Part shown: positions 3,211-59,200 of the stretch, in pieces | Layout of the letters: each line of letters starts with the position of its first letter | Numbering within the stretch: position 1 is the stretch's first letter | Source: Eledone cirrhosa | Taxonomy: Eukaryota | Direction: 5' to 3' | Assembly: GCA_964016885.1 (NCBI GenBank) | Contig: OZ024756.1 | Coordinates: 30,566,001-30,630,000 of the forward strand | DNA length: 64,000 nt | Program-made: the position numbers and the translations under genes | The notes under the pieces: model-generated | The model's database searches: none | Told to the model about the DNA's origin: nothing | The model's input: only the letters and a program-made list of their open reading frames with translations

Positions 3211-3637
3211 GTAGGAGGTGAGTTTTATTGTAGTACAATAAAGCAATGCAGATATCGGATAAGAAGCACTCTACAGTTTGTGGGACTGGAGTATGCATAA
3301 TATAAGATCAAAAGATGGTTAAAGGAGTTCCATATATTTTATTATGCGCATTTCAAAAACAAACATCATCAAGCAATAATATTTGTGTTTTCATCAGATA
3401 AAACAGGAGAACATGATATGAAGGCTAAAAAACACTTGTTGATAGTGCAGTTTTAAATCAACATATCATATGTTGATTTAAAACTGCACTATCAACAAGT
3501 GTTTTTTAGCCTTCATATCATGTTCACCTGTTTTATCTGATGAAAACACAAATATTATTGCTTGATGATGTTTGTTTTTGAAATGCGCATAATAAAATAT
3601 ATGGAACTCCTTTAACCATCTTTTGATCTTATATTAT
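3211..3637. mobile_element. Family A foldback element (tail plus 170-bp inverted arms)
   Basis: Arms 3297-3466 and 3468-3637 are almost perfect with a 1-nt centre. Tail 3211-3296 is on the left arm only. (TA)n on both sides. Confidence 0.8.
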
Positions 3638-3667
3638 ATATATATATATATATATATATATATATAT

Positions 3668-3794
3668 AGGAACAAGTAAGGCCCCGACGGCTGAGCTCAA
3701 GCTTACTTGTTCCTATTACCCACTCTACTACCCTAAGTATTGACTACTTTGGTGCGTTATGGTCCACCTGGTTCCTTACCACATTTCCTTCGTT
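3668..3794. mobile_element. Family B foldback element, short copy
   Basis: AGGAACAAGTAAG..CTTACTTGTTCCT inverted, then tail ATTACCCACTCTAC..TTTCCTTCGTT. At least five other clear copies in the window. Confidence 0.8.
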
Positions 3795-3857
3795 ATATAT
3801 ATATATATACATATATATATATACATACACACACACATATATATATATATATATATA

Positions 3858-4259
3858 TGGTCTGAGACTTGGACACTGACCAATAAACTCACTCCTCAGA
3901 TGGTGGATGGGTGCTACACAAGAATGCTGAGGATGGCTCTGAACATTAATCAGTATACGCTGAGGATGAAAGACTCAGAGCTGTATGGGAGCCTCCCAAA
4001 AGTCAGCTCAAAAGTGATACAGGAGAGACTGAGGTTAGCTGGACATGCTCACAGACATCCAGAGTTGACATTGCACTCAATGCTCTTGTGGAAGCCCCTA
4101 CATGGACACACTAGAAGAGGAAGACCAAGGTTAACGTATGTTGATGCCCTTAGGACAGACACTGGTCTGTTGGAGACGCAGGACATGGCAGCGATAATGA
4201 GGGACAGAGACCGCTGGAGAGAACTCGTCCATGGATCTCGGGAATTTTACCCACCCTAG
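3858..4259 (+). mobile_element. RTE-like LINE 3' fragment (C-terminus of RT ORF)
   Basis: Peptide SETWTLT..DGCYTRMLRMALNI..RLRLAGH..RRGRPRLTYVD..MRDRDRWRELV matches the post-RT C-terminal pattern of RTE-group non-LTR elements. 5'-truncated, inside TA repeats. Confidence 0.8.
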
Positions 4260-55064: not shown

Positions 55065-55612
55065 AGGCATAAGGCCAGCAATTTTGGAGGGGGGCGGGGG
55101 AAAGTCGATTAAATAGACCCACTGCGTGACTGGTACTGTATTTCATCGATCCCGTAAGGATGAAAGGCAAAGTTAATCTCCGCGGGATTTGAACTCAGAT
55201 CATAAAAGTCCGTAATACTATGCTGCAAAGCATGGTGTCCGACCCTCTACCAATACTGCCAATCCACCGCCCTTAAAAGAAGGCGAATAATAATTGTTTC
55301 TACTCTAAGCACAAGGCCAGCTATGTGAAGGGATAGGGGAAATCGATTAAATCGACCCCAGTTCATTACTGGTACTTTATTTTATCGACCCTGTAAGGAT
55401 GAAAGGCAAAGTTAATTACAGCGGGATTTGAACTCAGATCATAAAGGGCCGTAACTCTATGCTGCAAAGCATGGCGTCCAAACCTCTACCGACACTGTCA
55501 ACCCACTGCCCTAAAAAAAGATGAATAATAAGTACAACAATAATAATAATAATTGTTTCTACTTTTGGCACAAGGCCAGCAAATACCCAGTACATTACTG
55601 GTACTTTATTTT
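55065..55612 (-). mobile_element. Cluster of three SINE family 1 copies
   Basis: Copies at about 55065-55272, 55292-55512 and 55552-55612. Confidence 0.85.
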
Positions 55613-56846
55613 ATAATAATAATAATATTAATATTTATGGTTTCTGATTCAAACATAATGGTTAATATTAATAATGACGATGATGATGATAACACCAACA
55701 ACAACAACAACAACAACAACAACAACACCACCACCACCACCAACAACAACAACAACAACAACAGTAATGAGGATGATGACAAGGAATTTCTTGTTGTTGA
55801 TAAACGATGATAATGATGAAGGTCATGATGCGATGAGGATGATAATGATGGTGACGACGGTGATGATGATGATGTGATGGTGATGGTGATGACGATGGTG
55901 ATGATGATGACGATGATGATGATGATGGCAACGACGAGGATGATGATGGCGATGATGATGATGATGATGATGATGATGATGATGACGATGATCGTGATAA
56001 CCGGACAAAATGAAAAGTGTCAGACGAGGAGAAAAATAAAAGGTGAAAGGAGAAAAGAAGAAACAAAGACGAAGAAGAAAAAAACGTTGTTTATAAGAAA
56101 AGAAGAAAATCGAAGGAAAATAGAGAAAGCAAACATAAGAAACATTTTGGAAATGTTTTGGAAAATTGGATGATTAATGGCCTGTGGAAGAATAGAAAGG
56201 TGGGATATAAAAATGAGAAGAAAGCGTGTGAGAAAACGAAGAAAATTGAAAAGAAAAATAGGTACATAACAGGAAGAAAAAACATGAAGCTAAAGATAAC
56301 CACACGATTTGCAGAAGTAGGAAGCTTCAAAAGTTAGTAGGAGTATAATATTCATGGTATTTTAAAGTAGACATTCAATAATTTTAAGAAAAGAAGTGAG
56401 ATAATTTCAACGTGCCGACATCATATTAAATTTATTCTATAACCATTTTACTTTATAAATTGTGCGAATATATATATATATATGTGTATATATATGTGTG
56501 TGTATATATATATATATATATATGTGTGTATATATATATTTTCAAAACAAGATGGCGTAGGAGAGAACAAAGGAGAGGCACAAAACAAAGAAAAGAATCC
56601 CCAGTCACTGAAGAGGTCACAGGATGTGTAATGAAAAAACTTTGACAATATATGAACAACCGTCCGGTTATGGAACCAACCAACTAACCGGAAATTTACA
56701 AATTTCTTAAATTTATGAATTTAATTTCTAATAAATTGGAGTGAAAACAACTGGTGCATCTGTTTCTTATTGGCAACATGACCCTCCCGGAGTATAGCAA
56801 AAGTATAACTATATATATATATATATATATATATATATATATATAT

Positions 56847-57170
56847 ATTAAAATAACAGATTAAAGTTTAAGCAAATAATCGCTGCTTTCACCCTTTGGA
56901 TTTTAGTCTTCAAATTTATTATTATTACTATTATTATTACAATATATATATATATATATATATTGAAAAAGGTACTCAATACTTTGGTAGAATATAGGTG
57001 CGTTATTGTATATATATATATATATATATATATATATATATATATATAGTAATAATAATAAATTTGAAGACTAAAATCCAAAGAGGGCTTGATAAGGATA
57101 AATATATATATAATAAATATAAATATATATCAGCGATTCTTTGCTTAAACTTTAATCTGTTATTTTAATA
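56847..57170. mobile_element. Two family D inversion inserts and an orphan tail (56962-57008)
   Basis: 56847-56930 is an inverted body plus tail tip; 57048-57170 is an inverted tail part plus body end. Each lies between TA runs. Confidence 0.75.
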
Positions 57171-58882
57171 AATAAATATATATATATATATATATATATA
57201 TATATATAGTGAGAGAGAGAGAGAGAGAGAGAGAGAGAGAGAGAGAGAGAGAGAGAGAGAGAAACGAATTATACAAGACTGAAACTGTTTTATTCGAATG
57301 AAACCATCGGGAATGTCCCAGTGTTTGAAAGAGAGATGTAAGATCGCCTTCAAATCTTTTCTTTAAATATTCAAACACAGTAGCCTCTTCGTGAATCCTG
57401 CATGAATATTATAAGTGATGTCTACAACATCTTTTCTCAGATGTCTTCTTTTAGTGTTTGGGTCTAGACTGGGGCTAGTAAACGGCAAAACACAACAACG
57501 GCAATAACAGCAACGGTAAACTAAAATTCAATAAGGGTGACGAAGACTGCAGAAAATCGGTTACAACAACATCAACATCAACAACAGCGACAACAACAAC
57601 AACAACAACAATAGAACGAAAAATAATACCCCCCCCCAAAAAAAAACCCCCCAAAACAAACAAACAAACAAACAAACAAACAAAAACTGGAACAACGTGA
57701 ACGACACCAGCAACAACAACAACACCATCCTCATGATTAGTCAGAACAATACCACACTCCACATTAACACACTCCACTTCTTCTACCTTCTCCTCATATT
57801 CCTTCTCCACCGCCACCCCTTCCTCCTCCTCATCCTCCTCCTCCTCCTCCTCCTCATCATCATCATCATCATCATCATCATCATCACCATCACCATCACT
57901 ATGATCGCCACCCTCCTCACCATCATCATCCTCACCGCCATCGCCACTATCTTCATCCTCATCAACAACAATAAACAACTACTACTAATGATGCTGCTGC
58001 TGCTGATGCTACTGCTGCTACTACTACTACTACTACTACTACTACTACTACTACTACTACTACTACTACTACTACAAACACACACATCATCATTACATGC
58101 ATTCATCACAATATGTAAACATCATCATGGCCAACAACATCAATAACTACATTGTCATCATCATCATCATCATCATCATCATCATCATCATCACCATCCT
58201 CATCATCATGATCATCATCACCATCGTCATCATCATCGTCGTCATCAACAACAACAAAGACCACAAAAACAAACAACAACAACAACAACAACAACAACAA
58301 CTACAACAATAACGACTATACTATGAAAGATTTACCATGTAAACTAAACTGCAGTAATGTGTGAGTAAATGTGTTTAGTAGTAATATATCGATTGCGACT
58401 AATCTTTCCCTGTCCTACAAAATCTCACCTCTCTATACAGAATACAGTGATAGACAGAAATCGATAGTTGCTATATGATGATGTAACAACGCTATATACT
58501 CTTATAGTGGAAATGACGTCACTACTCTGGGGGGGAAAATGGCTGACGATGGAAAATTTCGTAATAAAAATATATTGATTCATCATCAATTTTCTCATTG
58601 TTTTCGGGGTAATTAGAGAAGATAAAAAAAAATATGACATTAAGTATGTATGTTGTCCTTACAGTGGACGCAGCATGAGCAAATTCGCTATCCTTAGGGC
58701 CCCGGGATCGATCCCACTACGTGGTATCTTGAGCAAAGTTAAGATTTGTAGATAGAAACTGTTTAAAAGGTGGTTCCATGGACAGTACATGCAATTCAAA
58801 AGACCAAACTTACTTATTCCTTGCAATGCTTTACCAGCAAGCTAACGCATGTATATATATATATATATATATATATATATAT

Positions 58883-59200
58883 AGTAATAATAATAAATTT
58901 GAAGACTAAAATCCAAAGAAGGCTCGATAAGGATTAATATATATTAAATATATAAGAACCGTAGAGCAAATATTTATTAAAATAACAGATTAAAGTTTAA
59001 GCAAAGAATCTCAGCTTTCACCCATAACGGGATCTTCTGAAACTAATCTTAGATTCAGAAGATTGGGGCTAACCAAAGTAAGGTACTCAATACTTAGCAG
59101 AGTATACATATTTAATATAGTTTAATTCGGGAGAAATCATCAGAAAGCCCCTGATGATTTCTCCCGAATGAAACAGTTCTAGTCTGTTGAATCTATTTCT
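58883..59200. mobile_element. Chimeric insert: full family D unit fused to a family C foldback
   Basis: D tail plus body 58883-59042, short foldback TCTTCTGAA..TTCAGAAGA, then C tail (59061-59120) and C body with CTGATGA (59151) and GAAAC (59170). Confidence 0.75.

Follow-up and report, generated by a model that had tools for sequence, protein, structure and literature searches.

Paired bulged stems beside the copy ends of Hydra-clade Penelope-like element remnants in Eledone cirrhosa as likely signals for reverse transcription start sites

How Penelope-like elements (PLEs), the sister group of telomerase, choose the sites at which their reverse transcriptase (RT) starts copying, and why their insertions carry a tail on one side only, are open questions stated in two papers (PMC8557442, PMC11167929). 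The present sequence is a 64,000-nucleotide (nt) stretch of the Eledone cirrhosa genome (GCA_964016885.1, contig OZ024756.1, positions 30,566,001 to 30,630,000), here called the window. The window is AT-microsatellite-rich DNA of a 3.0-Gb genome (G000; contig G000:C17), in which insertions of several families share one layout, namely (TA)n, inverted arm, sense arm, tail and (TA)n, the tails measuring about 70-170 nt in elements of this source genome. A sequence-only reading had noticed an RCTC..GAGY stem in the tails of seven families (A, B, C, D, E, G and H), and all seven stems are present, with loops of 11-38 nt and with outer pairs that are A-T in some families and G-C in others, as described there. 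It is likely that these insertions are remnants of Hydra-clade PLEs with two bulged stems, each lying a few bases 3' of a copy end, and that the stems are protein-binding signals setting two RT start sites.

The nature of the elements emerges from longer copies. A search for the GIY-YIG endonuclease led to a D copy whose tail continues into an open reading frame (ORF), and the order in full-length copies is hammerhead, site 1, stem 1, site 2, stem 2 and AUG, the two sites being the positions at which copies end. The D protein has 709 amino acids (aa; many frames are of 713 aa) and is encoded by a single ORF with a YIG motif near the C-terminus; homologous N-terminal or internal ORFs occur in A, B, E, H and G2, and a Hydra-type ORF is linked to six of the seven families, G being linked only through its sister family G2. 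RLRWRAF and SDKTGN are present in D, with RW[KR] and DK[TS] found across protein alignment A1, while CNCRNRVDC (the CxCX5C linker), CDLC..E and N..CKH occur in D and in most rows of that alignment; D is without the SKGLKF of the Neptune-type locus L051 but has the conserved [FY]GFK, the N-terminal GxKF/Y being described as not conserved in the Hydra clade (PMC8557442). A pattern scan of the sense arms gave putative hammerhead cores for A, C, G and H, and for D and E a variant with CAGA. It has been described that Hydra-clade PLEs possess RW[KR], DKT instead of DKG, the CxCX5C linker, CxxC/CxH around E and N but no CCHH, and GIY-YIG at the C-terminus, as well as a hammerhead in the pseudo-long terminal repeat (pLTR) and (TA)n targets (Craig et al. 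2021, PMC8557442), and the (TA)n flanks and putative pLTR hammerheads seen here agree with that description, as do the inverted arm, the one-sided tail and the single ORF. On these motif features the families are assigned to the Hydra clade. On the other hand, tails of 30-40 nt are given there, elements of the clade are "generally" under 3 kb (the D unit has 3,264 nt), and no RNA motif but the hammerhead is described in the available text (PMC8557442). An assignment to Naiad, which has an N-terminal GIY-YIG and no canonical hammerhead, was rejected because the endonuclease is C-terminal here; hammerheads are also present. The cores of D and E with CAGA in place of CUGA lie at window 59007-59039 (-), 5994-6026 (-) and 5382-5420 (-), and family D is young and of high copy number despite this variant.

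The sequence-only reading had proposed a conserved element just 3' of internal initiation, and the second stem that this predicts was found beyond the opposite copy end, by 3-6 nt, in A, B, D, E and H and in the sister family of G. It lies just past the end of the tail, is visible only in full-length copies and stands about 15-80 nt before the AUG, both stems falling in the 5' leader. Ahead of a Hydra-type ORF it was seen in D, in 13 continuing copies among 31 matches of A and in 10/10 of G2; it is present in four of nine non-TA continuations of B and, among matches to a pattern that itself fixed the 5' half, in 8/8 of E and 2/3 of H, the 3' half being damaged in several E copies. For B, a pattern search gave no full-length continuation in 30 loci, and protein queries then recovered them. 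A stem after the S3b tail of locus L133 was rejected as a second stem, being the fused tail of another family, an arrangement found once in the source genome; at L133:4300-4450 the tail of one family is joined to the stem-bearing tail of another, by template switch or by nested insertion without a TA spacer.

Because the bare RCTC..GAGY pattern is frequent, with 30 and 32 matches per strand in the window, it is position that matters. The gap between the stem and the final base in common with the TA target has a median of 4 nt and quartiles of 3-6 (n = 231 ends, those within 20 nt of a stem, one TA-run reference with spurious matches being excluded), so that the stem does lie 3' of the boundary, as had been noted, but within a tighter range than the 5-25 nt given at that time; 12 ends lie elsewhere. 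Among 30 3' ends of family D, 16 fall just before stem 1 and 13 just before stem 2 (one was unscored). UA overlaps the (TA)n target at both sites, mostly by 2-5 nt, and in other species TA begins at -6 from the stem in 55% of stems versus 9% of the background. It could be argued that the stems serve packaging, translation or transcript stability and that the ends are set by UA microhomology with the target alone, which would suit both the location of the stems in the 5' leader and the TA microhomology at the ends. However, the leaders are UA-rich throughout, yet 231 ends are stem-adjacent as against 12 elsewhere, and the enrichment of TA has its maximum at a constant spacing from the stem, which makes this explanation quite improbable.

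Inverted insertions have one end at each site in 100 of 102 cases (only duplicates of identical sequence were discarded, and a few insertions may be counted under both G and G2). Of 67 informative cases, 33 have a tail-less arm that extends further 5', eight have a tailed arm that does so, and 26 have arms of equal reach; each arm may hold sequence missing from the other, and full-length ORFs occur on either arm. That either arm may reach further and that ORFs are found on either arm points to an origin of the inverted arms as two RNA-templated cDNAs. Snap-back copying of one cDNA and self-priming on an antisense template, the latter proposed in PMC3846280, fit poorly, since either arm may outreach the other. 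Short B arms (e.g. 44894-44998 and 42469-42598) often fold back within the hammerhead region, about 50-60 nt 5' of site 1.

These ends also bear on the possibility that the stems act as signals for cleaving the RNA, or forming its 3' end, 3-6 nt upstream, and that the resulting UA-ended RNA undergoes end-primed target-primed reverse transcription at site 2 at least, internal priming being confined at most to site 1. The ends are sharp and fall on the UA word, and stem 2 is found at the 3' end of no copy, (TA)n following directly after an intact stem 2 in 0 of 39 copies, all of which speaks for such processing. Freely mixed site-1 and site-2 RNAs would, however, produce same-site pairs in about half of the insertions, compared with the 2/102 observed, and initiation of a Poseidon element has been shown to be internal to the RNA (PMC11167929); RNA processing is thus considered rather unlikely.

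The four-base-pair (bp) stem first described is present but incomplete, the motif being a 5-bp helix with a 2-nt 3' bulge, NCUCY…R-UH-GAGN, with two covarying pairs and the consensus 5'-N C U C Y ... R U H G A G N' A C U-3'. When sites are anchored on GCTC only, the fifth base pairs in 63/66 with a bulge of 2 nt, and in 0, 1, 10 and 12 with bulges of 0, 1, 3 and 4 nt; when they are anchored on GAG and its flank only, the first bulge base is U in 77/82 and the second is never G. A purine precedes the bulge U in 79 of 82 sites. Covariation was counted by anchored scripts, MAFFT having left the 5' halves unaligned across the variable loops, which range overall from 4 to about 100 nt. As had been suggested, it exists, and extends across species, but the outer pair, for which it had been claimed, is less strict than the inner pair, which is the better supported of the two. 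At stem 1 the inner pair is U-A in 17 rows and C-G in 16 and is mis-paired in two (n = 35; 33/35 paired), and its 3' base changes eight times on a FastTree phylogeny of 49 proteins gathered in this analysis (six source-genome families were scored by hand), independent contrasts agreeing in 5/5 (p 0.0625); family M has both G-C and A-U at the inner position. The outer pair is G-C in 60/73 outside the source genome, A-U in several source-genome families and U-A in one lineage. Wobble pairs leave the strand undecided (inner U-G 7 versus C-A 1; outer G-U 3 versus A-C 4).

The same features bear on a possible action of the motif in DNA, where the GIY-YIG endonuclease would recognise a donor copy or an integration intermediate and cut beside the motif. 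Such a role would be in line with the tail DNA needed for recognition by the endonuclease of D. virilis (as cited in PMC11167929) and with the attribution of the tail to endonuclease-mediated resolution (PMC8557442), but the paired bases compensate for each other across loops of 4 to about 100 nt and the bulge is on one side only, which argues for a folded single strand. Furthermore, the stem beside an end is never in that arm and therefore is not in the cDNA 5' end, and a DNA-level role is given a low probability.

The prevalence of the stem was assessed in 444 kb of the source genome (42 elements), sampled without regard to the motif, where it lies at most 30 nt from the boundary in 7 of 16 palindrome-plus-tail family representatives, while 300 dinucleotide shuffles yielded means of 0.01 (strict) and 0.12 (with the pattern of the sequence-only reading) and a maximum of 1. 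The nine families without a call include H (whose stem has a lesion), a truncated D, one with its stem seen in L016 and one interrupted by a repeat, and about five are truly without a stem. In the window copy of H stem 1, UUU precedes GAGC where another H copy (L374) has A-UU, and UUU is likely the lesion. In other organisms, 76 metagenomic loci were gathered, of which 54 reach the N-terminus and 49 have at least 100 nt upstream, and in these homologues the region from hammerhead to AUG has two copies of the stem and in some cases three. Blind calling with CTC and T.GAG as the only fixed letters made 83 calls, of which 55, in 37 of the 49 loci, have both free pairs Watson-Crick, compared with 1.4 +/- 1.2 (maximum 6) in 200 shuffles, 4 on the reverse strand and 0 and 2 in ORF interiors; some of the loci with no fully paired call have truncated or unrelated flanks or are mis-paired by the blind rule. 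Chance, or common ancestry of a few related families with no selected structure, could be invoked in view of the commonness of 4-mers and the unremarkable folding z-scores. Against this stand the occurrence of the stem twice per element across proteins of about 40% identity, with flanking DNA otherwise unalignable, the contrast of 1.4 in shuffles with 55, and repeated double changes on the protein tree, by which this extremely improbable reading is already largely refuted. Rfam gave no gathering-score match among the matches listed (150 of 330; 24 of 24), which were sub-threshold, of microRNA type and located on repeats and palindromes; the motif is short.

The stem is a feature of some families and not of others. 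In the window, the families at 458, 7056 and 42665 have no stem in the tail, and in Neptune- and Poseidon-type elements of the source genome it was found in none of 23 scorable 3' ends (30 loci). Two long-loop matches in eight upstream windows of Neptune/Poseidon type, one in an inverted flank and one in unrelated DNA beyond a TA run, are judged to be chance. The stem-less family at window 458-645 and 42665-42853 has a 41-43-nt tail that by eye resembles a Poseidon-type ORF start (L066), as in the Anolis element. Other stem-less families have tails of 35-60 nt (window 7015-7308; L001:5647-6017; L010:1528-2087; L070:1715-2080), and some of these have a TGTTTC-like word in common; all of them obey the two-end rule, and a search for their ORF gave none. 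In several Neptune-type families another short word, ACTCGTGT / ACTTGTGT / ACCCGTGT, stands just after the first end (L021, L024, L026, L039, L047, L048, L050, L059, L065 and L070), and it is possible that this word is a clade-specific counterpart of the stem.

Several observations weigh against the stems as start-site signals and have to be set beside the evidence above. Stem-less families also follow the two-end rule (14/14), so that two-site priming in general does not require the stem, and the RT of the Poseidon element PAc starts inside an AC-rich stem-loop and not 5' of a stem (PMC11167929). The spacing between end and stem varies, family modes ranging from 2 to 9 nt at sites with at least 5 ends. 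In two families, including that at window 12781, a U.C mismatch replaces the outer pair; the bulge has 1 or 3 nt in some other families and is UUU in the second stem of A; no fully paired call was obtained in 12 of 49 metagenomic loci; and the protein-tree test alone remains above p 0.05. Family C has no same-strand ORF link, with 0/7 pattern matches continuing into an ORF. Lastly, the helix is weak by itself (folding z -0.3 to -1.9), and the minimum-energy folds of A, B and G are without it; a stable form would therefore probably need protein.

If the stems are indeed start-site signals, the protein of the element, probably as a dimer, would hold both stems of one RNA and nick both strands of the palindromic (TA)n target, after which each nicked 3' end would anneal to the UA word lying immediately 5' to its stem. 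Two cDNAs would then be copied from opposite target strands and meet head to head, and the tail would be the RNA between the two starts, including stem 1, carried by one arm only. Full-length copies that end at site 2 (L257, L266, L271, L273, L274 and L275) constrain the template further, since stem 2 is never within the copy's own 3' end, and such copies would therefore need both stem 2 downstream and an entire unit upstream in one RNA, whether by read-through of a tandem, by a circular RNA or by a jump between templates. It has been proposed that hammerhead-made circles are templates of PLEs (PMC4209133). A more specific version, a symmetric double priming in which a dimer grips two TAR-like stems of one hammerhead-circularised or concatemeric RNA and primes two cDNAs from opposite (TA)n strands, is put forward tentatively, as a possibility that is more doubtful than not.

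A close precedent for two starts is the Poseidon element PAc of Anolis, for which nicking and extension of both target strands have been demonstrated in vitro (Frangieh et al. 2024, PMC11167929), together with internal RT starts at two sites bounding the tail, a requirement for RNA 3' of the starts and uncleaved RNA as the main substrate, a dimer being predicted (PMC11167929). Both systems thus have two internal starts bounding the tail, and a binding motif 3' of the starts was hypothesised there (PMC11167929). PAc differs in belonging to another clade, in starting within the ORF and in that no binding motif was defined for it; in the source genome, a Poseidon-type family is without the stem.

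The bulged strand itself resembles the arginine sandwich of TAR (the trans-activation response element) and 7SK RNA, where 7SK A39-U40-U41-G42-A43 forms a U40.A43-U66 triple (Pham et al. 2018, PMC6189040). A Watson-Crick base, a bulged U and then G and A follow one another in the register of R-U-H-G-A-G seen here (PMC6189040), while the loop closes the opposite end of the duplex and the function is unrelated. The resemblance is likely convergent, and the proposal that R-U-H-G-A-G adopts a TAR/7SK-type U.A-U triple bound by an arginine of the N-terminal region is a prediction only. In an AlphaFold model of the protein (predicted local distance difference test score, pLDDT, 91) the best Foldseek match is telomerase reverse transcriptase (TERT; E 3.5e-8), and its alignment to TERT chains begins at residue 1 (for example C. 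tropicalis 250-747, Z 16.6, root-mean-square deviation 4.1, 299 aligned), a score tied with that of a group II intron RT (16.7). By residue numbering and end points only, this alignment presumably covers part of the telomerase RNA-binding domain; a sequence search found no solved PLE structure.

Telomerase had already been invoked in the sequence-only reading, in which the stem was likened to a template-boundary element (TBE). The template-recognition element (TRE) of Tetrahymena is found on the 3' side of the template. It is placed between template and pseudoknot in PMC5855555, where the TBE is described as located 5' of the template and ending synthesis. The stem, lying 3' of the start, has the opposite polarity and is therefore not a TBE; longer cDNAs, moreover, run through upstream stems. 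What is shared with both elements is non-template RNA beside a short primer-alignment word and a related RT, and the TRE alone is a positional analogue.

Other RTs also depend on cis-acting RNA structure, as RTs of long interspersed nuclear elements (LINEs) read 3'-end stem-loops (L2/eel UnaL2, the R2 3' untranslated region) and the epsilon element of hepatitis B virus is likewise a cis RNA for its RT. In all of these an RNA structure near the start of copying serves a cognate RT; the LINE signals, however, are single and inside the copied 3' end, whereas the present elements carry two, and each lies downstream of the cDNA that it would start and is not part of it. No description of the twin bulged stem was found in the literature, with Repbase, Pyatkov 2004, Arkhipova 2006, subscription journals and key supplements and figures outside the coverage, and the words 'tail', 'stem' and 'initiation' are absent from the available part of a 2026 retrozyme preprint. 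What appears to be new is the twin bulged stem, while the element clade and two-site initiation were already known.

Table 1. Positions in the window of PLE insertions, stems and putative hammerhead cores.
Feature	Position	Strand	Remark
Family A insertion (inverted arm + sense arm, palindrome 3300-3634, 90-nt tail, in (TA)n)	3213..3634	-	
A stem 1, ACUC-C ... G-UA-GAGU	3268..3292	-	
A putative minimal hammerhead core (CUGAUGA..GAAA..UA)	3343..3397	-	pattern scan; inverted twin 3537-3591 (+)
Family E insertion (palindrome 5267-5553 + 82-nt tail)	5267..5636	+	
E stem 1, ACUC-U ... A-UC-GAGU	5559..5582	+	
B stem 1, further copy	10309..10332	-	
Stem of further family, UCUC-C ... G-UU-GAGC, outer pair mismatched (U.C)	12781..12821	+	overlooked in the sequence-only reading
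B stem 1, further copy	20074..20097	-	
Family G insertion (palindrome 22305-22637, 89-nt tail, putative hammerhead core 22355-22401)	22216..22637	-	
G stem 1, ACUC-C ... G-UU-GAGU	22276..22295	-	
Stem of further single-copy family, ACUC-U ... A-UU-GAGU	23620..23640	-	
C stem 1, ACUC-U ... A-UU-GAGU	26445..26463	+	more copies 59085-59103 (-), 60834-60852 (+)
H stem 1, GCUC-U ... GAGC	26791..26823	-	
H putative hammerhead core	26880..26918	-	inverted twin 27011-27049 (+)
B stem 1, further copy	32362..32385	-	
D stem 1, further copy	36679..36724	-	
B stem 1, further copy	42437..42460	-	
Family B insertion (palindrome 44894-44998 + 79-nt tail)	44894..45078	+	
B stem 1, ACUC-U ... A-UU-GAGU	45007..45030	+	
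Stem of further single-copy family, inner pair A.A (decayed or variant)	46412..46431	+	
B stem 1, further copy	50570..50593	-	
Family D end: hammerhead-like core (CAGAAGA variant, 59007-59039), site 1, tail, site 2	58884..59041	-	
D stem 1, GCUC-U ... A-UC-GAGC	58922..58967	-	

Beyond the features of Table 1, two overlapping RCTC..GAGY matches at window 63884-63933 belong to no recognisable palindrome-plus-tail element and are probably due to chance. The window also holds a LINE-type 3' ORF fragment with a zf-RVT match (27743-28465) and what we take to be 3' fragments of other LINE-type ORFs (3888-4256, 45440-45799 and 53051-53410), together with an abundant SINE-like (short interspersed nuclear element-like) repeat of about 200 nt in short tandems (13504-14022, 49152-49659, 52151-52983 and 55035-55612), which is also inserted in PLE tails. 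Local segmental duplications of several kb adjoin the window (L003/L005, L004/L006 and L016, on G000:C17).

As regards the biology of these elements, a covarying motif that is repeated twice and lies at a set distance from both ends opens the choice of start site and the one-sided tail to direct mutagenesis, for which a suitable type of assay is available, and the stem is at the same time a clade marker for non-coding remnants. The twin stems limit what the template may be (tandem, circle or jump), and this is relevant to the hammerhead, itself unexplained; the signal, if portable, defines internal initiation for a compact RT-endonuclease of about 710 aa. If true, symmetric double priming would explain inverted pLTRs, the tail on one side, partial tandems and what the hammerhead does by a single mechanism, and a telomerase-related RT would then have a start signal of about 20 nt that is portable.

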